From Escherichia coli 042 (GTDB lineage: Bacteria; Pseudomonadota; Gammaproteobacteria; Enterobacterales; Enterobacteriaceae): a stretch of 64,000 bases of DNA. Numbering within the stretch: position 1 is the first letter of the stretch; each line of letters opens with the position of its first letter. Shown here piece by piece: positions 19,078 to 57,267 of the stretch. Position numbers and translations under genes: made by a program. The notes under the pieces are model-generated. The model saw nothing but the letters and a program-made list of their open reading frames with translations. It did no database searches and had not been told where the DNA came from. The stretch lies in NCBI RefSeq assembly GCF_000027125.1, contig NC_017626.1; one strand, 5' to 3'.

Positions 19078-19215
<138 letters not shown>

Positions 19216-45664: not shown

Positions 45665-46768
45665 ATGAGTGACAGCCAGACGCTGGTGGTAAAACTCGGC
45701 ACCAGTGTGCTAACAGGCGGATCGCGCCGCCTGAACCGTGCCCATATTGTTGAACTCGTTCGCCAGTGCGCGCAGTTACATGCCGCCGGGCATCGGATTG
45801 TTATTGTGACGTCGGGCGCGATTGCCGCCGGACGTGAGCACCTGGGTTACCCAGAACTACCAGCGACTATCGCCTCGAAACAATTGCTGGCGGCGGTAGG
45901 GCAGAGTCGACTGATTCAACTGTGGGAACAGCTGTTTTCGATTTATGGCATTCACGTCGGGCAAATGCTGCTGACCCGTGCTGATATGGAAGACCGTGAA
46001 CGCTTCCTGAACGCCCGCGACACCCTGCGTGCGTTGCTCGATAACAATATCGTTCCGGTAATCAATGAGAACGATGCTGTCGCTACTGCAGAGATTAAGG
46101 TCGGCGATAACGATAACCTTTCTGCGCTGGCGGCGATTCTGGCGGGTGCCGATAAACTGTTGCTGCTGACCGATCAAAAAGGTTTGTACACCGCTGACCC
46201 GCGCAGCAATCCGCAGGCAGAACTGATTAAAGATGTTTACGGCATTGATGACGCACTGCGCGCGATTGCCGGTGACAGTGTTTCAGGCCTCGGAACTGGC
46301 GGCATGAGTACCAAATTGCAGGCCGCGGACGTGGCTTGCCGTGCGGGTATCGACACCATTATTGCCGCGGGCAGCAAGCCGGGCGTTATTGGTGATGTGA
46401 TGGAAGGCATTTCCGTGGGTACGCTGTTCCATGCCCAGGCGACTCCGCTTGAAAACCGTAAACGCTGGATTTTCGGTGCGCCGCCGGCGGGTGAAATCAC
46501 GGTAGATGAAGGGGCAACCGCCGCCATTCTTGAACGCGGCAGCTCCCTGTTGCCGAAAGGTATTAAAAGCGTGACTGGCAATTTCTCGCGTGGTGAAGTC
46601 ATCCGCATTTGCAACCTCGAAGGTCGCGATATCGCCCACGGCGTCAGTCGTTACAACAGCGATGCATTACGCCGTATTGCCGGACACCACTCGCAAGAAA
46701 TTGATGCAATACTGGGATATGAATATGGCCCGGTTGCCGTTCACCGTGATGACATGATTACCCGTTAA
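45665..46768 (+). CDS. proB: Glutamate 5-kinase
   Basis: Start [19 protein letters not shown]; amino-acid kinase domain plus C-terminal PUA domain. Confidence 0.95.
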
Positions 46769-46779
46769 GGAGCTGGCCG

Positions 46780-48033
46780 ATGCTGGAACAAATGGGCATT
46801 GCCGCAAAGCAAGCCTCGTATAAATTAGCGCAACTCTCCAGCCGCGAAAAAAATCGTGTGCTGGAAAAAATCGCCGATGAACTGGAAGCACAAAGCGAAA
46901 TCATCCTCAACGCTAACGCCCAGGATGTTGCTGACGCGCGTGCCAATGGCCTTAGCGAAGCGATGCTTGACCGTCTGGCACTGACGCCCGCACGGCTGAA
47001 AGGCATTGCTGACGATGTGCGCCAGGTGTGTAACCTTGCCGATCCGGTGGGGCAGGTAATCGATGGCGGCGTACTGGACAGCGGCCTGCGTCTTGAGCGT
47101 CGTCGCGTACCGCTGGGCGTGATTGGCGTGATTTATGAAGCGCGGCCGAACGTGACGGTTGATGTCGCTTCGCTGTGCCTGAAAACGGGTAACGCGGTGG
47201 TCCTGCGTGGCGGTAAAGAAACCTGCCGCACTAACGCTGCAACGGTGGCGGTGATTCAGGACGCCCTGAAATCCTGCGGCTTACCGGCGGGTGCCGTGCA
47301 GGCGATTGATAATCCTGACCGTGCGCTGGTCAGTGAAATGCTGCGTATGGATAAATACATCGACATGCTGATCCCGCGTGGTGGCGCTGGCCTGCATAAA
47401 CTGTGCCGCGAACAGTCGACGATCCCGGTGATCACAGGTGGTATAGGCGTATGCCATATTTATGTTGATGAAAGTGCAGAGATCGCTGAAGCCCTGAAAG
47501 TAATCGTCAACGCGAAAACCCAGCGTCCGAGCACATGTAATACGGTTGAAACGTTGCTGGTGAATAAAAACATCGCCGATAGCTTCCTGCCCGCATTAAG
47601 CAAACAAATGGCGGAAAGCGGCGTGACATTACACGCAGATGCAGCTGCGCTGGCGCAGTTGCAGACAGGCCCCGCGAAGGTGGTGGCTGTGAAAGCGGAA
47701 GAGTATGACGATGAGTTTCTGTCATTAGATTTGAACGTCAAAATCGTCAGCGATCTTGACGATGCCATCACCCATATTCGTGAACACGGCACACAACACT
47801 CCGATGCGATCCTGACCCGCGATATGCGCAACGCCCAGCGTTTTGTTAACGAAGTGGATTCGTCCGCTGTTTACGTTAACGCCTCTACGCGTTTTACCGA
47901 CGGCGGCCAGTTTGGTCTGGGTGCGGAAGTGGCGGTAAGCACACAAAAACTCCACGCGCGTGGCCCAATGGGGCTGGAAGCACTGACCACTTACAAGTGG
48001 ATCGGCATTGGTGATTACACCATTCGTGCGTAA
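46780..48033 (+). CDS. proA: Gamma-glutamyl phosphate reductase
   Basis: 417-aa aldehyde-dehydrogenase-family ORF directly after proB. Confidence 0.95.
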
Positions 48034-48147
48034 ATAAAACCGGGTGATGCAAAAGTAGCCATTTGATTCACAAGGCCATTGACGCATCGCCCGGTTAGTT
48101 TTAACCTTGTCCACCGTGATTCACGTTCGTGAACATGTCCTTTCAGG

Positions 48148-48223
48148 GCCGATATAGCTCAGTTGGTAGAGCAGCGCATTCGTAATGCGAAGGTCGTAGG
48201 TTCGACTCCTATTATCGGCACCA
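48148..48223 (+). tRNA. thrW: tRNA-Thr (anticodon CGT)
   Basis: GCCGATATAGCTCAGTTGGTAGAGCAGCGCATTCGTAATGCGAAGGTCGTAGGTTCGACTCCTATTATCGGCACCA; cloverleaf with CGT anticodon and 3' CCA. Confidence 0.95.
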
Positions 48224-48224
48224 T

Positions 48225-48503
48225 TTAAATCAATAAGTTACACATAATTAGTACCTTCCTTTTTTTTGACTGGGACAAATTTGGGACCGATGGGTTCAGG
48301 ACTGAGTCTATTTGCCGTGCGTGTTCGGTAAGGTGATTAGGCGCGAGGTGAGCATATCGACGAACCATTTCGATAGACTCCCAGCCTCCCATTTCTGAAA
48401 ATGCAAGAAGAGAAACACTGGACTGAACCAGCCTGCTTGCCTTTGCTATCAAAGTACCTTGAAGGCCAGATGATTTCTGGCGATATTTACAGCGCTTCCG
48501 CAA
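48225..48503 (-). pseudogene. 3' remnant of a P4-type tyrosine integrase gene abutting thrW
   Basis: C-terminal integrase signature [32 protein letters not shown] with the catalytic-Tyr RRYAHL motif; no N-terminal or core domains upstream. Confidence 0.75.
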
Positions 48504-48585
48504 TGAGTTTTTCTCTGTGCCGCCAGAGGCGTTCCCCGCTTTTTCAGCACCGCAATAATGTCGGCGGAATGCCAGTCCTGTTGCA

Positions 48586-49056
48586 TCATGCGGCCACCTC
48601 GCTGATAAATTTTACGCCGTCGGCGGTACGCAGCCAGCGTGGGGCTTTGAGTCCTTCCGTGAAATACCAGACCAGCTCACACAGCAGCCCGGTCAGGGTT
48701 TGCTCCATTTTTGGTTCCGCCGGACGTTCCAGCAGAAGCTGGAGTAGTGCGAGGCAGTATTCGCACAAGGAATCAGGTTCGGAAATAAAGTGCTCTGGTG
48801 TGGCGGGAAGGGTATCCACGGTCAGGCTTTCGGTAAGATGCGGTGGGATGGGGTCGTGTAGTGTGGGTTGCAGTAGCGCAAGAGCCGCGTGAAGCCGCCC
48901 GCAGAGCGCCAGTCGTAGCGCTGGATCGTCGGTTTCAATCAGGGTTTCGGCAAAGCGGGCGCAGTAGTCAGCAAGGACAGTGAAATCCGTGGTGGCATTG
49001 AAGGGGACGGTCAATAGATCGAGTAAATCGCTGTCAGTGGTGAGGATTGTAGCCAT
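48586..49056 (-). CDS. Hypothetical 156-aa protein, function unknown
   Basis: Acidic Leu-rich ORF with GGAGG ribosome-binding site 8-12 nt upstream of the ATG; no motif recognised. Confidence 0.55.
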
Positions 49057-49059
49057 AGG

Positions 49060-49260
49060 GCAACCTCCGATAAGTGGGTGTTCAAGCCACCACCGGAGAG
49101 GCTAATCTCGCGGGTGGTGGAACCGGGCAGGGTTAGCCTTACCAGCCTTATCGGACACTGGCGCGTCTTGCGACGCCCCCGCCCGGCCCACCATTGAGAT
49201 GTAACCGTGCGAACAACACAAAAAAAGACGCTGGCGCGTCATGTGTCGCCGATAAGATTT
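49060..49260. repeat. Cluster of degenerate REP-like palindromic units and hairpins
   Basis: GACACTGGCGCGTCTTGCGACGCC (49155-49178) and GACGCTGGCGCGTCATGTGTCGCC (49227-49250); CCGATAAG/CTTATCGG three times; 8-bp inverted repeat CCACCACC/GGTGGTGG (49087-49094/49113-49120); minus-strand GACGC-loop-GCGTC hairpin followed by T7 (49221-49241). Confidence 0.65.
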
Positions 49261-49402
49261 CTTCAGGAGGCTAATCCCGACGCCTGATTTTGCAGGCGCG
49301 GGAGAAAGATACTGCGATTGGTCATGAGTGGCAAGGGCTACATCATGTTTACCGACATCTCACGCAAAAATACCCTGATTATTAATAGCGAAAATCAGTT
49401 TC

Positions 49403-52400
49403 TTATTTTGGCGGTAGCTTTTTGCGGTTCTTTGCCAACTGGAATCCTTCAGGTAACGGTTTGAATTTATCGCCGCCTTTAGGCCAGCGTTTTGCCCTGC
49501 TCTGAAATGCCCTTAACGAGTCGATATCCAGCGTTGCAGCGACCACAAAGTCATTATCACCGCCCTTCACACGAGCAATATCACGCATAAAGGGTTCTTT
49601 TGCCGGGGAACGTACGCGACTATCGCCGTATTTTCGGTTATTCACTAAAATAGTATAGGCATGAATATCCAGCGCTGCTGATTCAATCAACGATGCAAAC
49701 GTATCTAGATCTTTATTCCAGCTCAATACCATTAATGCATCGAGTGCGCCCTGAAAACGGATCCTCGCTTTACTATTCTGGAGTTCAGAGCAAATCATAA
49801 CGCCAAAATTGACGCCGTGATGAATATATACCGGCTTACGTTGTTTAACATTAAGTGTCGAATCCCAAGACTTACCATAAGTTGAAAATAATGCCTCATC
49901 TTCACCTACGGCGGGTTCCAGCTTGGGTTGCCATATTTTGACACTCGCTGGATAGCCGAGTCTGTTATCTGAAAGGACAAGTACGGCCTCACTCTTCAGT
50001 TGATTATCGTCTAAGTGGCGGTATTCTGTTCCCGCAATTAGACTGATACCCGCCGAACTCAAACGATCAGCAATACTGTTAACCCAGCGTAACGGGATTG
50101 AAAGCTCAGGGAATAAAACATAATCAGGTTTAGGAGATAGTTTCAATGTTGCATTAACCAGTTCAGAAATCCGCTGGTACCTTGAACGGGACAAGTTAGA
50201 TTTATTGCAGGCCATTTTAGCCCAGTCGTCCTCCTCTGTTTTAATGCTGGTTAGCGCAACGACAACTTTATGTTTCCTGTCTGTGCCAATATGAATGAAT
50301 TTCTTAGGCCGAGCTTTTTTTGTCGCTTCATCTGAGTCCTGCTCCGATGCTAGCAACGTCGGTTTGATCCATACTCCGCGTAATGCTTGAGTATATTTTG
50401 CCCAAATGGTGGACGGTCTCTCATCTGGTTTTTTGTCGGATGTGGAGGGTAATCCAACACATTCGGGGGCCAGTTCTGATATTTCAGCGGGTGTTAAAGG
50501 ACGTGTAGGGAAAATGTAAGGTAGGTAACTTTCGTTCTTACGATTTCCTTTAGCCACTTTTTCCAGTCGGGTATTCTTGGTTGATTTCAAAAATAGCTTA
50601 ATAACGTCAATATCAATAAGCGATGAGTCGCTCATTAATTTCAGTATTTTAACTTCTTTTTTACTATCACGCTGATTAACAAGTTTTTCTGCCGACTGAC
50701 TCTTTACGATCTGTTTATAAGGTTCCTTTGCTAAATCAGCTCGAGCTACCAATGGCGCTTTTAAATAAAAATCTGCTGAATCAAAGCGAAGATCCAGTAA
50801 ATCCTTTAGATTCGTCAGACTTTGTGAAATATGATTAAAAAATGTATCCGCAAGGCACTCTTCTTTCTTTGAACGTTTATCAAGAAATAATCTGTCAGGA
50901 CTGTAATATCGTGTCGCTGCATCAACAAATAGCCAGCTTAATGTGCCTTTTATACAGCGCCAAAGATCATTTACTGCTCGAGTTTTGCAACCATTTATAT
51001 TCACTTCCTTACCTGAAGTAATCACCGATGCCAACAGGTTGATGGATTCGTAAGCTTTAAGTACAATTTTTTCCGCGTGCTGCCATTCATTCATACTGAT
51101 AGCAAAGCCAAGCAGCCTTGGCAGATAACTAAAATGTGCAAATAGATTATCAGCCCTAAGAATATGGTTGTAGGCAAACTGATAAAACTCTTCCCGCTGT
51201 TCTTTCCATTCACTTGGAGGCAGATCTCGTGCCAGTGTTTCAACGTAGCGTAATTGCAGTGACCAGCCCAAACGACGAATGGTTAATCCATCCGCACGGC
51301 GCAGAGTATCGGCATTTTCACCTACACTACCGGCAGCGGAAAGGACTTTAGCTGCGGTGGAGTGTTCCAGTTGATCCGGTGAAGGCATCAAGCGGTGTTC
51401 ACTAGAAAGCTCGTAGATCTCCTTTTCGATACTGTCGAGCAGGTCTATTCCAGCCCTCCCTTGAAGCACGAAAAGTTTTTGCTTATCGGATTGTAACTGG
51501 ATGGTGGTCTTACCCTGGAAATGCTCGCCCTGCTGTATTTGCCATATTTGTTTTTGCTCGTTTTTCAAATAAACGCAATCATTGCCAAGCCTATCTTGCA
51601 GCAATAACATAAATTCGTGATTATTAGTAATTGTCCCTGTATCGCGTATTACAAGGAACATATCATCGACATAACGACCGTAGTGAATTGGTGATAGTTT
51701 TTCAATGACTAATTTATCCCAATGGTGTAGCAATATATTTGAAATGATCCGACTGGCTGTTAATCCAATGACCAGACCACCATTAATAACAGGTGTTTTG
51801 TACGCTATTTTCTTTCCAAATGCCGCTGCGCCGTCAGACCAGTGCTTTAAGAATACTGCTAACTGTGCAGTAAACGCTTTTTCATCCTCAGTCAGTTTTA
51901 TGTTTAGTGTGTTATAGAGATCATCAGAGGTTATAGCCAGTGGATCAATAAAATGATAGTAACTTTTTAAATCCAGTGAGGCGGCGATAATGTCACGATC
52001 TTTTTCCAACTCGTCACGTATAGCTTTTAAGCCATCACCACGCCATTTTTGGTAGGGCTGGAAGTAGGGGCTAAAAGAACCCACGGCACTGATATGGAAT
52101 GGATTATCCTGCTCATTGCTAAATAATTCATCATTACGAATACGCTTTAGCCGCGCGCCATAGCAACAGTTATCTAAGCTGGCATCAAATTTATGCCCGA
52201 CCATGTTAATCCATAGTGCAGAGATAATGTGACTATCAACCGGGAAGTCACCAATAATACGAAACTCTGGTATCAGATCAAAATTATTAAATAAATGGTC
52301 GGCTGCTCGTTTAGGATTAGAAAAGTGGACGTGTCCATTTTGGGATTCATGTTTTTTCTTTGTGGTTAATTTTTTCGGTAACAAACGAAATTTGCCAATC

Positions 52401-52612
52401 AACTTCTTATTGCTACTGAATCCATCTTCGCTCTGCAAAAGATCTAAGAGTTTTTGCAGGTTTTCAAGTAATTCCTGCTCATACTCGGCAAATTTGATAG
52501 CAACAGGAAATGTATTCTCAAAGAAGCTATCGGCTTTTGCTTTCCGGTAAGCGACCAGAAGGTCTTCAATCGTCAGATCATCCCAGCCAGTGAAAATTGC
52601 CTGATATGTCAT
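49403..52612 (-). CDS. Reverse transcriptase fused to a C-terminal nitrilase-family domain (DRT type 1-like)
   Basis: 1069-aa ORF; RT motif A-like LDLKSYYHFI, motif C YGRYVDDMFLV; C-terminal nitrilase-like Glu in YVLFPELSIP and Cys in GVMICSE. Confidence 0.8.
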   Translation of the reverse strand: MTYQAIFTGWDDLTIEDLLVAYRKAKADSFFENTFPVAIKFAEYEQELLENLQKLLDLLQSEDGFSSNKKLIGKFRLLPKKLTTKKKHESQNGHVHFSNPKRAADHLFNNFDLIPEFRIIGDFPVDSHIISALWINMVGHKFDASLDNCCYGARLKRIRNDELFSNEQDNPFHISAVGSFSPYFQPYQKWRGDGLKAIRDELEKDRDIIAASLDLKSYYHFIDPLAITSDDLYNTLNIKLTEDEKAFTAQLAVFLKHWSDGAAAFGKKIAYKTPVINGGLVIGLTASRIISNILLHHWDKLVIEKLSPIHYGRYVDDMFLVIRDTGTITNNHEFMLLLQDRLGNDCVYLKNEQKQIWQIQQGEHFQGKTTIQLQSDKQKLFVLQGRAGIDLLDSIEKEIYELSSEHRLMPSPDQLEHSTAAKVLSAAGSVGENADTLRRADGLTIRRLGWSLQLRYVETLARDLPPSEWKEQREEFYQFAYNHILRADNLFAHFSYLPRLLGFAISMNEWQHAEKIVLKAYESINLLASVITSGKEVNINGCKTRAVNDLWRCIKGTLSWLFVDAATRYYSPDRLFLDKRSKKEECLADTFFNHISQSLTNLKDLLDLRFDSADFYLKAPLVARADLAKEPYKQIVKSQSAEKLVNQRDSKKEVKILKLMSDSSLIDIDVIKLFLKSTKNTRLEKVAKGNRKNESYLPYIFPTRPLTPAEISELAPECVGLPSTSDKKPDERPSTIWAKYTQALRGVWIKPTLLASEQDSDEATKKARPKKFIHIGTDRKHKVVVALTSIKTEEDDWAKMACNKSNLSRSRYQRISELVNATLKLSPKPDYVLFPELSIPLRWVNSIADRLSSAGISLIAGTEYRHLDDNQLKSEAVLVLSDNRLGYPASVKIWQPKLEPAVGEDEALFSTYGKSWDSTLNVKQRKPVYIHHGVNFGVMICSELQNSKARIRFQGALDALMVLSWNKDLDTFASLIESAALDIHAYTILVNNRKYGDSRVRSPAKEPFMRDIARVKGGDNDFVVAATLDIDSLRAFQSRAKRWPKGGDKFKPLPEGFQLAKNRKKLPPK

Positions 52613-52906
52613 GCGTTATCGTCCTTAGATTACAGTCTGTACAGAATTAGCCAGCCGTTTCATGCCCGAAGGGGGGCTCTTGACACCAGTAATCCATCAG
52701 TGAGGCTGGCAATAATTTTGATTTGTATCCATGTTACACGCTCCCCGCAACCAGTCCGAGCATATATTTGTCACATTTTTCCCGAAAGTGATTAAGTTTG
52801 AATTTTTTGTTTAATGTCGATTTTTAGTCGACAAAATGAGGAATAAGTAAACTATTTCTTGCTGTGGCGTATCCCTGAATCTACACTGGTTTAAATATTT
52901 GTACTA

Positions 52907-53710
52907 ATGTCTATTCAGAGGCGACAGTTGCCAAACTATCTAAACTGGCTGATGCAGCACACGCTACCCGGCCAGGTGCTGCTCCAGTCATGGCTTACCC
53001 GCAACGGCATAGATCGTAAGCTCTCTTATCTCTATGTGAAGAATGGCTGGCTCAGGCGGATCGCTCACGGCGTATACTGCCGGACGGGCCGTGAGCCGGA
53101 TTGGGTAGACGCGGTTTACTGCCTTCAAACACAGTGGGAAAAGCCTGTTCGGGTGGCGGGGCTAACCAGCCTTGCGCTTCAGGGCCATGCGCACTATACC
53201 GAACCGGGTAAGCCGCAGGTCTGGCTCGCGCTTCCGGCTTACGTTAAGCTGCCGGGATGGTTTGCTGCCTTCGAACAATCTGCAACATTTATCACGCTGT
53301 ATACATCGGGGCTTACCGTAGATGTAACGTCATTGACTACGGAACTGAAAATTGGCGACCGCCAGTTAGCAGGCAGTGCCCCGGAACTGGCCGCGTATGA
53401 GATCGCCTGCGGCGTTCCTTCGTTGATATCGTTCGAACATGCCGATGCTCTGTTTCAGGGGATGAATCTTCTCAGCCCGCGTAAATTGCAGGCGTTACTC
53501 TGCGCCAGTCATTCGGTTAAAACCAACCGGGTGATGCTTTACCTTGCCCGGCGTAATGGACACCCTTATTTTCAGTATCTTGATCAAAGCGGTATAGAAA
53601 CAGGTACGGGAAAGCGGCAAATCATACCTGGTGGCTGGCTGGAGCCGGATTATCAAATTACTGTTCCACGCGAATTTAAACCGGAAGGAGTCGAAGATGG
53701 ATCTGCGTGA
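52907..53710 (+). CDS. AbiEi-like antitoxin/transcriptional regulator
   Basis: 267-aa ORF immediately upstream of, and overlapping by 14 bp, a DUF1814-type nucleotidyltransferase gene; assigned mainly by that pairing. Confidence 0.6.
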   Translation: MSIQRRQLPNYLNWLMQHTLPGQVLLQSWLTRNGIDRKLSYLYVKNGWLRRIAHGVYCRTGREPDWVDAVYCLQTQWEKPVRVAGLTSLALQGHAHYTEPGKPQVWLALPAYVKLPGWFAAFEQSATFITLYTSGLTVDVTSLTTELKIGDRQLAGSAPELAAYEIACGVPSLISFEHADALFQGMNLLSPRKLQALLCASHSVKTNRVMLYLARRNGHPYFQYLDQSGIETGTGKRQIIPGGWLEPDYQITVPREFKPEGVEDGSA

Positions 53711-54617
53711 TAGCTATACCCGGCAGGTCAAACTGTTGATGGACGCTCTGCCGCATGTGGCGAAGGAGTCCGGTTTCGCATTAAAAGGCGGCACCGCAAT
53801 CAATTTGTTTGTGCAGGATTTTCCCCGTCTGTCGGTGGATATCGATCTGGCGTATAAGACTTTTGCGGATCGCGATACCGATTTGACGGCGATCAACGAC
53901 GCTTTGAAGAGAATTACTGCATCGCTGAACAGTAAACCGGGGATTACCGCGATTCGGCAGGAAAATAAAACGGATGAAAAGCGCATCATTGTGAATACGG
54001 CTGATGCCCAGATTAAGATCGAGGTTAGTCCGGTCTGGCGTGGGCTATTGTTGCCTCCGGCAGAAATGTCGGTGTGCGAACGTGTGGAAATGGAGTATGG
54101 CTTCACCACTATGAGTGTCGTTTCGCTGGCGGATCTTTATGGCGGTAAAATCTGCGCAGCGCTTGATCGTCAGCACCCGCGCGATCTGTTTGATGTGCTG
54201 AATATGCTGGAGAAACCGGGACTGATGCGGGAGATCTTTGACGGTTTTCTTTGTTATCTGGCAGGCCATCCCCGCCCCATTGCCGAGTTGCTGGCTCCAA
54301 ACTGGGATACAGAGCGGATCACGACGCTGTATGCTCAGGAATTTTCGGGGATGACTCAGCAGGAAACGTCGCTGGAATCGCTGCTGTCAGTAACGACTTT
54401 GCTGCCGCAGGCGTTGAAGTCACATCTTACGGATCTGGATCGCGAGTTCTTGCTCAGTTTTAAGCAAAACAGCCCTGACTGGTCGCGGTATCGCTATCCT
54501 GAAATTCAGCATCTTCCGGCTATTCGCTGGAAGCAACGTAATCTGGCGGTGCTGAAAGATAAAAATCCGGCGAAGTATGTGGCGGCGGTGAATAAGCTAG
54601 AGAGGGTGCTGGCGTAA
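53697..54617 (+). CDS. AbiEii-like nucleotidyltransferase toxin (DUF1814)
   Basis: 306 aa from ATG 53697 (MDLRDSYTRQ); nucleotidyltransferase signature FALKGGTAINLF...RLSVDIDLAY. Confidence 0.75.
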   Translation: MDLRDSYTRQVKLLMDALPHVAKESGFALKGGTAINLFVQDFPRLSVDIDLAYKTFADRDTDLTAINDALKRITASLNSKPGITAIRQENKTDEKRIIVNTADAQIKIEVSPVWRGLLLPPAEMSVCERVEMEYGFTTMSVVSLADLYGGKICAALDRQHPRDLFDVLNMLEKPGLMREIFDGFLCYLAGHPRPIAELLAPNWDTERITTLYAQEFSGMTQQETSLESLLSVTTLLPQALKSHLTDLDREFLLSFKQNSPDWSRYRYPEIQHLPAIRWKQRNLAVLKDKNPAKYVAAVNKLERVLA

Positions 54618-55059
54618 TCAATAGACCAGCATTAATCACAGAAGATTACCAATCAGACAGAAATGGTTAAATCGTCGAATTCATAATTAATACTTTTTCT
54701 TACGCCGCTGAACAGCTTGAAAAGGATACATATTTTAAATATCAGTGAAGTGAACAGTTTATTGCCGTTATTAATAGAGATGGAGGAATAAATACGCGTA
54801 TTCTACTATTGCAACAAAAAAAACGATGATGATCAGTTTTCATAATGAAGTAACCTGACAGATATAAAAATGTTGATTGAGGCTCAATGCCCGAATGAAG
54901 GTTGTCGAGGGAGCCAGGTGGTTTTTTCTTTTGGGTGATCTCCATTGCTGGATAGTCCCCTCTTTCTCGCTCAAAGCAGGGTGTACAGACCCTGGAATTG
55001 AACGCAGAGGGACTACCTGACACAATTTTGCACAGTGAAGAGTCGGTCGTTATTAACGT

Positions 55060-55944
55060 TCAGATTTTCAATGTATCAATGACCATCCGCAGGGCGGGGG
55101 AGACGTTGCGATGAGGGTAATAGAGAAACAATCCCTCCATTCGCAGGCTGTAACGCTGCAACACCCTGATAAGCTTACCGTGTTCTAAATCATCCGCGAC
55201 CAGTTCAACAGGAACATAGGCCAATCCGAGGCCCAGCCGGGCTGCTTCTGCTTCCATATAGCTGTCGGATAAGGCCCATTGCCCTTCAGGGCGATGAGTG
55301 ATTTTTTTATCATCCTGATTGAGTTCCCACTGGTATACGCTGCCGTCGGCAAACTGATAGGCGATACAGGGATGCGCCTTTAAATCCGCCGGGGTTTGCG
55401 GAAAACCATAGCGACGAAAATGTTCCGGAGTCCCCACAATTGCCATCTCCATATCGGGCGTGATGCGTACCGCGACCATACCCTGGCCGACTTCAGGCCC
55501 CAGGCGGACACCTGCATCGAATCTTTCCTCGATGATATCGACGAACCGGCTCTCATTTATCAGTTCAAGCCGGATATCAGGATATCGCTGTTTAAATACC
55601 GCCAGATTTGGCAGCAGGCATTTATCAATCGCGTGCTGGCTGGCATTGATACGCACCGTGCCGGAGGGCGTCTCTCGATAGTGCGCCAGCGTGGCAAGCC
55701 CAAGATCTAACATTTCAAATCCAGATGCCGTCTTCTGGTAGAGCTGCTCGCCTGCTTGTGTCAGCGACAGTTTACGCGTGGTGCGCACTAGCAGCTGGAC
55801 ACCCAGCCTTTCTTCAAGCTCGCGAACAGAACGGCTGACTCCTGACTGAGCAAGACCCAGCCGCTGAGCCGCTGCGGTAAAGCTGCCTTCTCGCACCACC
55901 TGCATAAACAGGTACAGCTCGTTGTAGTTCTCCCTTTTCGCCAT
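55060..55944 (-). CDS. LysR-family transcriptional regulator
   Basis: N-terminal HTH (FMQVVREGSFTAAAQRLGLAQSGVSRSVRELEERLGVQLLVRTTRK) and LysR substrate-binding domain. Confidence 0.88.
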   Translation of the reverse strand: MAKRENYNELYLFMQVVREGSFTAAAQRLGLAQSGVSRSVRELEERLGVQLLVRTTRKLSLTQAGEQLYQKTASGFEMLDLGLATLAHYRETPSGTVRINASQHAIDKCLLPNLAVFKQRYPDIRLELINESRFVDIIEERFDAGVRLGPEVGQGMVAVRITPDMEMAIVGTPEHFRRYGFPQTPADLKAHPCIAYQFADGSVYQWELNQDDKKITHRPEGQWALSDSYMEAEAARLGLGLAYVPVELVADDLEHGKLIRVLQRYSLRMEGLFLYYPHRNVSPALRMVIDTLKI

Positions 55945-56130
55945 TGAAACATCCCCCCTTCATGCCGGCAATCTCCGCATTAATTTATAACAATATGGTA
56001 TTAATCTTAGCATTAATCGCCCCCTAATCAGCACTAATTCTGCTCACTATAATGACCCCATCAAAGCAAAGCACTGCAGCGTTGTCCGTCGGAAACCTGT
56101 ATCTCTCTGTTGTTTTTTATGGGGATTTTT

Positions 56131-57267
56131 ATGAAAGCCTTCACCCGAACGCTAAAAACCGCGATGCCGACCATGCTGCTTTTCGCGTCATTATGTGGAG
56201 TCACGACAATGAGTTATGCTGATTCAACCAATCCTAATGCCCCTGTGTCCATGACAGATAAATGGGATAAAACGTTCGCCGAGAGCCAGAAAGTCGATCA
56301 CCGTAAAGTATCGTTCCCGAACCGATATGGCATCACCTTAGTGGGCGATCTTTACCTGCCTAAAGACCGTGGCGATCGCAAGCTGGCGGCGATTGCGGTC
56401 AGTGGGCCATTTGGCGCGGTGAAAGAGCAATCCAGCGGCCTGTATGCGCAGACGCTGGCGGAACGAGGGTTTGTTACCCTGGCGTTCGATCCTTCTTACA
56501 CCGGGGAAAGCGGCGGCTATCCGCGAAACGTCGCCTCACCGGATATCAACACTGAAGATTTCAGCGCGGCGGTGGATTTCTTAGGGCTGCAAAAAGAGGT
56601 AGATCGCAACCGTATCGGGCTGCTCGGTATTTGTGGCTGGGGCGGCATGGCGCTGAACGACGTGGCGATGGATACCCGCGTTAAAGCGGTAGCTACCAGC
56701 GTGATGTATGACATGAGCCGGGCGATGGGTCATGGTGTGGGGGATGGCAAAGACCGTTATTCTACCGCCGACCGTCGTGCCGTTCTGCAATATCTGAATG
56801 AACAGCGCTGGAAGGATGCGCAGAGCGGAACGTTCGCTCACGGTGGTCATGATATTAATGTCGACAGCAACGGCAAGGTCAGTGCGGGCGAGCGCATTCT
56901 GCCAGAAACGCTGCCGGCAAATCCTCATCCGGTACTGAAAGAGTTCTTTGACTACTATCGCATGCCGCGCGGCTTCCACGAACGTTCCGTTAACTCTACC
57001 GGGGCGTGGACGGCAACGATGCCGCTGTCATTTATGAATATGCCGCTGTTGAGCTACGCCAGTGAAATCACCATTCCGACGCTGATTGTGACCGGTGAGA
57101 AAGCGCATTCACGCTATTTTGCTGAAGATGCTTACAAGGCGGTTGGCAGTAAAGACAAAGAGTTGGTGGTGGTACCAGGGGCAAATCACGTGGACCTGTA
57201 CGATAACGTGGCCGGAAAAATACCTTTCGCGAAGTTCGAACAATTTTTCCAGACCAAACTGAAATAA
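56131..57267 (+). CDS. Secreted alpha/beta-hydrolase-fold protein
   Basis: Signal peptide (MKAFTRTLKTAMPTMLLFASLCGVTTMSYA), nucleophile-elbow-like GICGWGG; start uncertain among 56110, 56119 and 56131. Confidence 0.7.
   Translation: MKAFTRTLKTAMPTMLLFASLCGVTTMSYADSTNPNAPVSMTDKWDKTFAESQKVDHRKVSFPNRYGITLVGDLYLPKDRGDRKLAAIAVSGPFGAVKEQSSGLYAQTLAERGFVTLAFDPSYTGESGGYPRNVASPDINTEDFSAAVDFLGLQKEVDRNRIGLLGICGWGGMALNDVAMDTRVKAVATSVMYDMSRAMGHGVGDGKDRYSTADRRAVLQYLNEQRWKDAQSGTFAHGGHDINVDSNGKVSAGERILPETLPANPHPVLKEFFDYYRMPRGFHERSVNSTGAWTATMPLSFMNMPLLSYASEITIPTLIVTGEKAHSRYFAEDAYKAVGSKDKELVVVPGANHVDLYDNVAGKIPFAKFEQFFQTKLK

Follow-up and report, generated by a model that had tools for sequence, protein, structure and literature searches.

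A composite genomic island at thrW of Escherichia coli 042 with a predicted C4-controlled 156-residue protein and a swappable reverse transcriptase-nitrilase cassette

The DNA next to the threonine tRNA gene thrW of Escherichia coli 042 holds an uncharacterised 156-residue open reading frame (ORF), a 1069-residue reverse transcriptase (RT)-nitrilase gene and an AbiE pair, and it raises the question of what kind of element unites them and whether the small protein works together with the RT. The window that we analysed is the whole stretch of 64,000 nucleotides from this strain (contig NC_017626.1, assembly GCF_000027125.1), and the part described here runs from 48,148 to 55,059. Its genes follow the order proB, proA, tRNA-Thr(CGU), an integrase-like ORF, the 156-residue ORF (orf156) and the 1069-residue ORF (all three on the minus strand), two overlapping ORFs on the plus strand and a LysR gene on the minus strand. 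Judging from the sequence, positions 48242-54606 are an immobilised composite genomic island at thrW, an allele of the GI-thrW island published for E. coli sequence type 131 (ST131). The best overall explanation, which we consider probable, is that this island combines a predicted C4-controlled orf156 module, a slot for exchangeable cargo and an AbiE pair, and that orf156 and the RT do not act as partners.

The limits of the island were set by alignment to the island-free strain 118UI, whose near-empty site matches the window over 46000-48241 and again over 54607-57000. Because this alignment stops at 48241 and resumes at 54607, the island comprises 48242-54606 (6365 bp). A 440-bp AT-rich stretch before the LysR gene, which the original prediction had counted within the island, was rejected as island DNA: everything from 54607 rightwards is ordinary chromosome, common to island-free strains and with a remnant of ykgR; positions 54607-54700 are matched in about 600 E. 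coli genomes that lack AbiE. Of 5426 complete E. coli genomes, 258 have the 7.4-kb stretch nearly intact and 180 have a 118UI-type, almost empty configuration, and in K-12 the site is occupied by the 34-kb CP4-6 element. The expectation of variable cargo at a thrW hotspot, with CP4-6 in K-12, is therefore borne out, and aligning the interval across E. coli genomes, as the original prediction had suggested, both fixed the island ends and brought out RT and restriction-modification (R-M) cargo alleles. In near-identical copies PGAP lists a partial integrase, a partial and frameshifted helix-turn-helix (HTH) protein, a hypothetical protein, an 'ash family protein', an RNA-directed DNA polymerase, AbiEi, AbiEii, a ykgR fragment and LysR, in that order. 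GC content is 0.58-0.60 over orf156 and about 0.36-0.48 across the RT gene. A search inside the window for a direct repeat of thrW (attR) found none.

The cargo slot became visible when the island was compared by blastn with that of ST131 strain MNCRE44 (locus L003). Window positions 47900-49335 align at 89% and 52704-54618 at 93%, and the DNA between them is confined to the RT allele. The features of this right-hand part of the island and its border are as follows.

49336..52703, no strand: cargo cassette of 3368 bp, present only in the RT allele (blastn against L003)
49403..52612, minus strand: UG5-large RT-nitrilase fusion, class 3 UG/Abi DRT, 1069 residues (PADLOC RT_UG5-nitrilase PDLC03780)
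52928..53710, plus strand: AbiEi antitoxin/regulator (PADLOC AbiEi, E 1.6e-79; PGAP type IV toxin-antitoxin AbiEi family protein)
53697..54617, plus strand: AbiEii nucleotidyltransferase toxin (PADLOC AbiEii, E 1e-115; PGAP)
54607..55059, no strand: conserved chromosomal spacer with ykgR remnant (about 54771-54848) and right island junction (alignment to island-free 118UI)
55060-55944, minus strand: LysR gene (ORF)

In ST131-type GI-thrW the same slot is filled by 6.1 kb of hsdS-hsdM-hsdR. Among the complete E. coli genomes, about 259 carry the RT allele and 541 the type I R-M allele. The breakpoint of the swap, at 49335/49336, falls between orf156 and the RT gene. Klebsiella has the same AbiE, slot, small-RNA module (isrK-C4, described below) and 153-residue homologue of orf156 as a frame around a third cargo, a DUF4747 pair, and in Dickeya the 153-residue module stands beside R-M and DarTG. 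Conversely, homologues of the RT (71-76% identity) in Salmonella, Yersinia and Vibrio occur without the 153-residue gene, behind Kiwa genes or an SMC-like ATPase. Since the breakpoint separates the two genes and each occurs elsewhere without the other, orf156 does not appear to be a partner of the RT, and the relation between the two genes that the original prediction had singled out as a candidate for something undescribed is not supported.

In the Salmonella locus (L021, 1-10216) and the Yersinia locus (L025, 1-10219), the RT homologue (75-76%) lies 13 bp behind a Kiwa-like KwaA/KwaB pair and is accompanied by a type I R-M operon. This stacked cargo sits on islands with an Integrase_1/EFASI or P4-type integrase backbone. 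The RT-only and R-M-only alleles of E. coli could be deletion derivatives of such stacked Kiwa/R-M/RT cargo.

The left part of the island contains an RNA module, which the original prediction had described as a REP-like (repetitive extragenic palindromic) structured spacer. We rejected that description, as the spacer consists of an isrK-type small RNA (sRNA) and a C4 antisense RNA that both score above their Rfam gathering thresholds. The features of the module and of the gene behind it, in the direction of transcription, are:

49306..49334, minus strand: sigma-70-like promoter TTGCCA-17-TATCTT that would start isrK at about 49299 (consensus scan)
49221..49299, minus strand: isrK-type sRNA (Rfam RF01394, 68.8 bits against a gathering score of 50)
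49274-49268 / 49256-49249, minus strand: upstream sites a1 / b1 inside isrK (complementarity to C4 a' / b')
49110..49198, minus strand: C4 antisense RNA (Rfam RF01695, 71.1 bits against a gathering score of 45; full length, model positions 1-87)
49064..49105, minus strand: C4 target sites a2 / b2, within the 53 nt between C4 and orf156 (complementarity)
48586..49056, minus strand: orf156, intact member of an uncharacterised Enterobacterales family (typically about 153 residues) (ORF)

The promoter hexamers are conserved in an alignment of six loci and form the last conserved backbone before the cargo. These loci, on which the comparisons below are also based, are the window, ST131, two other E. 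coli sites, Dickeya and Klebsiella (relatives L003, L005, L010, L013 and L017). A terminator scan placed an intrinsic terminator of isrK at 49240-49227, followed by a T run, and the Rfam model c4-a1b1 reached 43.8 bits, slightly under its gathering score of 46.7. The C4 RNA, with a predicted fold of -51 kcal/mol, carries a' (AGGCUAA, 49139-49133) and b' (UCCGAUAAG, 49155-49147). Its proposed targets are a2 (UUAGCCU, 49105-49099) and b2 (CUUAUCGGA, 49074-49066), the latter overlapping the GGAGG Shine-Dalgarno sequence of orf156 (49068-49064). The a' and b' segments are exact 7-9-nt complements of both site pairs, a1/b1 in isrK and a2/b2 before orf156.

C4 RNA occurs in each of the five relatives as well as in L014 and L019. 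Among the six loci the a' and b' segments are not the same, and all four target sites vary to match. Pairing of a'/b' with a2/b2 is made up entirely of standard pairs (100%), with 9 of 16 pairs altered on both sides; for a1/b1 it is again 100%, with 9 of 15 altered on both sides. None of 500 shuffles reached the observed value in either case, and slid controls gave only 26-47% pairing. Pairing of C4 with sites over the Shine-Dalgarno sequence of orf156 is thus well supported by complementarity and covariation. The architecture is the one that Citron and Schuster's work is said to have established for c4 of phages P1 and P7, and by analogy we infer that C4 represses translation of orf156.

In locus L005 (9777-9849), an E. 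coli asn-tRNA island, isrK has lost its terminator hairpin and its score falls to 52.4, while C4 and its targets are still matched. Transcription may here read through into C4 constitutively.

C4 is also overlaid by a protein call. PGAP annotates an 'ash family protein' ORF at 49102-49275 on the minus strand, and likewise at 14586-14744 in L003 and 15109-15267 in L010. Matches of Pfam PF10554 on fused 'ash' versions coincide with the C4 antisense RNA, and one frame is open over C4 in five of the six loci, the exception being Dickeya. For orf45 of Gifsy-1, which is translated, the nucleotide sequence has been found to be conserved and the amino-acid sequence not (PMC4825925). The 'ash' ORF is possibly a systematic protein mis-annotation of an RNA gene, or else a dual-function region like Gifsy-1 orf45.

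What, then, is orf156? The strong ribosome-binding site that had been noted for it is real, with GGAGG 7 nt ahead of the ATG, and so is its lack of description: the protein matched nothing in Pfam, PHROG, NCBIfam, PADLOC or PDB. Structure prediction, which together with profile searches had been proposed for this protein, gave an AlphaFold2 (AF2) model with a predicted local distance difference test (pLDDT) score of 91 and a predicted template modelling (pTM) score of 0.84, consisting of a predicted four-helix bundle and a beta-hairpin. The family comprises at least 646 clusters at 90% identity, or 188 representatives at 50%, all unnamed and from Enterobacterales. Its frame is uninterrupted in about 800 genomes. 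The ratio of nonsynonymous to synonymous substitution (dN/dS) is 0.10-0.31 in all pairs, and it is 0.10 against ST131 even though both alleles have the same truncation junction (see below). From this ratio and the pLDDT of the model, we conclude that orf156 is a real gene. Longer homologues were considered as a clue to fused domains and proved uninformative, being isrK/C4 read-throughs or mis-called N-termini. A tblastn search of orf156 against a phage collection gave one match only, in an unannotated record of 1472 bp.

The context of the family is more telling. In intact relatives the order is tRNA, P4-type integrase, Integrase_1, in some cases an EFASI RNA, a Ner-like gene, the 153-residue gene, C4, isrK and variable cargo. 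The family gene always lies directly behind isrK-C4 and ahead of the Ner/SfsB-like gene. In P1 and P7, the gene directly behind C4 is an antirepressor. An Ant antirepressor also lies directly behind C4 in an Stx phage, and in Gifsy-1 the gene directly behind isrK/C4 is the antirepressor anrP (PMC4825925). Because P1, Gifsy-1 and Stx phages hold an antirepressor at this position, we read orf156 as a C4-gated gene of the same kind, most likely the first gene of an immI-like operon of the island that encodes a protein-binding derepressor or regulator.

The EFASI motif of intact relatives (Rfam RF02957, 99-119 bits) lies between the Ner-like and Integrase_1 genes, at 9300-9429 in L017, 11389-11517 in L005, 13271-13399 in L010 and 10836-10966 in L021. 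It is absent from the window.

The cargo gene itself is well classified. Its full-length match to the PADLOC UG5-nitrilase model (1034 bits over residues 1-1068, with Drt1a as next best group at 89 bits) confirms the RT-nitrilase fusion that was proposed from the translation, and PADLOC RTasNitrilase matches residues 783-1058 (E 1.9e-43). YVDD at residues 314-317 aligns to D324/D325 of DRT1 (9yfd), and Cys941 of the nitrilase domain aligns to the catalytic C1116; E836 in an 'FPE' motif was assigned by inspection only. NCBIfam returned no specific model for the RT, nor for orf156, AbiEi or AbiEii. The family keeps a length of about 1067 residues and about 70% identity across many Gammaproteobacteria, and among 260 genomes the E. 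coli copies share more than 99% identity. Class 3 DRTs are known for protein-primed, template-free synthesis, which in DRT1 gates the nitrilase, and anti-phage activity dependent on both domains or untemplated synthesis is documented in the literature for DRT11, DRT1 and DRT5L. Covalent DNA adducts that resist RNase have been described for DRT1 and DRT5L. By analogy, the window RT likely forms protein-primed, untemplated DNA adducts and provides abortive-infection defence through its nitrilase domain.

The AbiEi/AbiEii pair of the original prediction was likewise recovered, by the PADLOC matches given above. The longest ORF of AbiEi starts at 52907 and the PGAP start in near-identical genomes is 52928; AbiEii overlaps AbiEi by 14 nt. 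Both genes belong to the common backbone (93% identity to ST131), and AbiEii is found in 832 E. coli genomes. The AbiE region of the window (52620-54700) is 95.8-98.1% identical to that of other RT-bearing genomes, many of which have an RT gene 100% identical to the one here. The difference suggests recombination within the island.

At the left end, the island carries the remains of two genes beside the tRNA:

48148..48223, plus strand: tRNA-Thr(CGU), thrW, the attachment site (ARAGORN; Rfam tRNA, 71.8 bits)
48255..48440, minus strand: integrase remnant, last ~62 codons of an SfII/SfV/P22-type phage integrase (tblastn, SfII Int)
48433..48589, minus strand: pseudogene of a Ner/SfsB(Nlp)-like HTH_35 regulator (tblastn with the intact homologue of L010)

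The original prediction had a decayed P4-type integrase beside tRNA-Thr. A C-terminal stub does lie there on the minus strand; its type, however, is SfII/P22 and not P4. By tblastn it matches residues 321-382 of the 387-residue SfII Int at 81% identity over 62 residues, and its last 46 residues are 89-91% identical to the integrases of SfII, SfIV, SfI and SfV. In comparisons with the P4-type integrase of related islands (E 1.5) and with IntF (E 9.5) no similarity was found, and the P4-type label was rejected on both counts. PGAP flags the stub as an incomplete integrase in near-identical genomes. Serotype-converting phages of the SfII group and P22 integrate at thrW. Window positions 48178-48395 match DNA of SfII, namely the int 3' end plus attP, at 97% identity, and the 3' 46 nt of thrW, which lie inside this match, are phage-derived (attL). 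The T-stem of thrW shows a compensatory change from G-C to U-A relative to island-free 118UI, which is explained by this match to SfII int-attP DNA.

Two versions of the thrW T-stem, G-C or U-A, exist among the genomes compared (window 48195-48215 against L011 and L002) and do not strictly track the island; in strain 7/2 the island goes with the 'chromosomal' version. This distribution points to recombination within the att region.

The ner pseudogene, which was not part of the original prediction, matches residues 1-35 and 42-74 of the 84-residue L010 homologue in two frames with an internal stop, and its start overlaps the stop of orf156 (ATGA). Intact Ner-like homologues match NCBIfam SfsB at E 1e-30 to 1e-33 as well as Pfam HTH_35, and PGAP calls a frameshifted HTH fragment at this position. 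The junction between the truncated ner and int genes is common to the RT and R-M alleles, and one continuous alignment spans it. Since both alleles have the same junction, the truncation predates their divergence, for which the synonymous divergence (dS) in orf156 is 0.28.

Taken together, we propose the following history. An SfII/P22-type phage and a tRNA-integrating defence island would both have inserted at thrW, in tandem. A single deletion would then have joined the last ~62 codons of the phage int to the 3' end of the Ner-like gene, with loss of the island's P4-type integrase, of Integrase_1 as second recombinase and of any attR. What survived would work as follows. The predicted promoter drives isrK, which bears the decoy sites a1/b1 and a terminator, and read-through past isrK would yield the C4 antisense RNA. 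Its a' and b' segments would pair with a2/b2 over the ribosome-binding site of orf156 and block translation. In the ancestral island orf156 was presumably co-translated with the Ner-like repressor and acted as a derepressor or regulator. The slot between the isrK promoter and abiEi would accept swappable cargo, here a single-gene UG5-large RT-nitrilase, and AbiEi/AbiEii would serve as the island's type IV toxin-antitoxin/Abi pair.

The right end of the ST131 island in MNCRE44 (L003, 23055-24792) contains an integrase pseudogene of full length, an attR that copies 45 bp from the 3' end of thrW, and the SfII-like integrase stub for a second time. These remnants indicate repeated occupation of the thrW site.

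Several points weigh against this account. The sample behind the covariation is six loci only. The succession of tandem integration and deletion is a reconstruction. No sequence or fold similarity was found between orf156 and Ant, Icd, AnrP or P4 epsilon, and its fold matches are to generic four-helix bundles only, so the role assigned to orf156 comes from its position alone. The presumed partners of orf156, ner and int, are dead here, which leaves an island regulator with nothing obvious to act on, and yet orf156 is under purifying selection. Finally, the E. coli UG5-type system tested by Rousset 2022 (from a P4 hotspot, assayed at room temperature) had a transmembrane (TM) partner, and Mestre 2022 reports the TM protein as required. 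A TM partner or any other ORF on the RT strand was sought in the cassette (49336-52703), and none was found.

This last point bears on the alternative that the RT-nitrilase is an orphan or inactive relic lacking a needed partner, with AbiE the only working defence of the island. Besides the TM protein of the validated system, it draws on the RT gene being inactivated in some strains and on the Salmonella and Yersinia homologues being embedded behind Kiwa genes. Against it, the ORF in the window is intact with its catalytic YVDD and Cys941, the copies in E. coli are nearly invariant, and the family keeps its identity and length across distant Gammaproteobacteria. A TM gene is present in just 31 of 299 UG5-large loci; the TM-less UG5-large DRT11 is sufficient for defence, and DRT1 likewise defends alone. 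The loci of the RT homologues contain no constant TM neighbour and no other constant neighbour. We therefore regard a relic RT as unlikely.

The inactivations are of two kinds. In MEI003 (L001, 4502-7707) the RT-nitrilase gene is split into two ORFs, and in WP9-S17-ESBL-11 (H101) it is interrupted by an IS5-like insertion sequence of the ISKpn26 family. From their sequences, both are sporadic inactivations. The neighbours of the RT homologues were also considered as possible partners and were rejected, as they are separate systems (Kiwa KwaA/KwaB, SMC-like ATPase).

A different view of orf156 is that isrK-C4-orf156 is a self-contained module, pairing an RNA antitoxin with a protein toxin or sensing phage for abortive infection, in which infection or loss of C4 frees a harmful protein. 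This would account for its survival in a defence island after the mobility genes had died, and it fits the location among defence genes and the intact state of the module, with dN/dS of 0.10 between two alleles that have the same truncated ner/int junction. The icd gene of P1, the first under c4 control, is toxic to the cell, which also speaks for a harmful product. In Gifsy-1, freeing the isrK-controlled operon led to growth arrest (PMC4825925). Nevertheless, no toxin-like fold was found for orf156 and there is no sign of toxicity, and in intact relatives the family gene is translationally coupled to a Ner-like regulator within an integrase module, which fits a regulatory operon. Toxin and antitoxin would also be lost together, making for weak addiction, and the selection signal may predate the decay. 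Such a toxin module seems rather improbable.

Closely related, and improbable as well, is the idea that isrK-C4-orf156 is a stand-alone RNA-gated effector kept by selection in defence islands, with C4 variants of differing a'/b' 'immunity' specificity that silence a novel four-helix protein. If this were true, a phage or satellite event (decoy RNA, RNase interference or read-through) would free orf156 and lead to cell arrest or prophage derepression, and the family would constitute a new group of RNA-controlled modules for anti-phage or inter-element conflict.

That orf156 is instead a decaying leftover with no present function is quite doubtful: speaking for it are the loss of the integrases and the decay of ner, the other gene of its operon, into a pseudogene, but its frame stays open in about 800 genomes, selection is evident between two truncated alleles, and its C4 pairing sites are fully preserved. 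Least credible is that orf156 is an accessory subunit of the RT-nitrilase standing in for the TM partner of canonical UG5-large systems, which is suggested by the adjacency of the two genes (same strand, 346 bp apart) and by the downstream partner genes of some canonical loci, and opposed by the breakpoint between them, the separate predicted promoter and RNA control of orf156, the GC contrast, a model of orf156 with no TM segments, homologues of orf156 beside R-M, DarTG, DUF4747 or type VI secretion system cargo, and RT homologues that lack it.

We thus favour the immobilised composite island with a predicted C4-controlled regulator gene and exchangeable cargo. The locus is largely a composite of known kinds: RT-nitrilase and AbiE are already called by standard defence finders, and GI-thrW, of which the island is an allele, is already published. 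Its one undescribed part is the C4-gated family of 156-residue proteins. A widespread unnamed Enterobacterales family of more than 600 clusters hereby gains a regulatory context, as the predicted direct target of a C4 RNA of covarying specificity in the slot of an antirepressor. The locus also offers a clean natural cassette exchange: between fixed flanks at a tRNA hotspot stands either a single-gene RT-nitrilase or a type I R-M system, within a frame that recurs in Klebsiella. The RT cassette would lend itself to mechanistic work as a convenient UG5-large system of E. coli that has no TM protein, and the 'ash family protein' calls over C4 point to a possible annotation artefact of PGAP. Elsewhere in the window, and unconnected to the island, Rfam naRNA4 (CssrE, a nucleoid-associated non-coding RNA / REP-type element) matches 19083-19159 on the plus strand at 78.4 bits.

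Among known systems, the RT most resembles other UG5-large systems (DRT11, the 'RT-nitrilase + 1TM' system of P4-like satellites in E. coli, and DRT5L), with which it shares the YVDD of the RT, the nitrilase Cys, the full-length PADLOC match and a place in a defence island on a mobile-element backbone. Its single-gene, TM-less layout is that of DRT11 of Sinorhizobium meliloti. It belongs to a separate subclade, the one of about 1067 residues and about 70% identity across Gammaproteobacteria, and unlike the system of Rousset it has no TM partner and occupies an island slot at thrW rather than the P4 psu-int hotspot. DRT1 (UG1, 9yfd) has the same class 3 architecture; the C-terminal nitrilase region aligns to it at E 1e-6 with the catalytic Cys conserved, and a shared use of template-free, protein-primed DNA adducts to gate the nitrilase effector is likely by analogy. 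The window RT nevertheless falls in another UG group, as the Drt1a hidden Markov model score given above indicates, and the priming Ser402 of DRT1 is reported not to be conserved in other class 3 DRTs.

The RNA module corresponds to immI of P1/P7 and to isrK-orf45-anrP of Gifsy-1 in its RNA families, in the layout with a1/b1, then C4, then a2/b2 over the ribosome-binding site, and in covarying specificities, and as with Gifsy-1 orf45 an ORF call overlies the RNA. It differs from them in that the controlled gene encodes an unrelated 156-residue helical protein followed by a Ner-like gene, not Icd, Ant or AnrP; orf156 had no PHROG, Pfam, NCBIfam or specific fold match that would make it an Icd/Ant-type antirepressor homologue. 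The host element is also different, being a tRNA-integrated island and not a phage. A P4-like satellite was considered and rejected, as psu, delta, sid, alpA, epsilon and alpha primase are absent from the window island and from intact relatives as far as these were read, which was at most 10 kb, and 15 kb in a single case, to either side of the 153-residue gene. Within that range the relatives have only Int, Integrase_1, the Ner-like gene, the 153-residue gene and cargo.

The closest counterpart overall is GI-thrW, named for ST131 (EC958, MNCRE44), with the type I R-M system EcoMIII as its cargo (PMC4659465). Both islands share the site, the backbone of int stub, truncated ner, orf156, C4 and isrK (89%) and AbiEi/AbiEii (93%). 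In contrast to the ST131 island, the window island carries the RT in place of EcoMIII and lacks the right-end integrase pseudogene and the 45-bp attR copy of thrW. The b' specificity of C4 also differs, being CCGAUAAG in the window and CCUGUAACG in ST131 GI-thrW. The AbiE pair of the window is an ordinary member of its kind, with both genes present, overlapping and full length.

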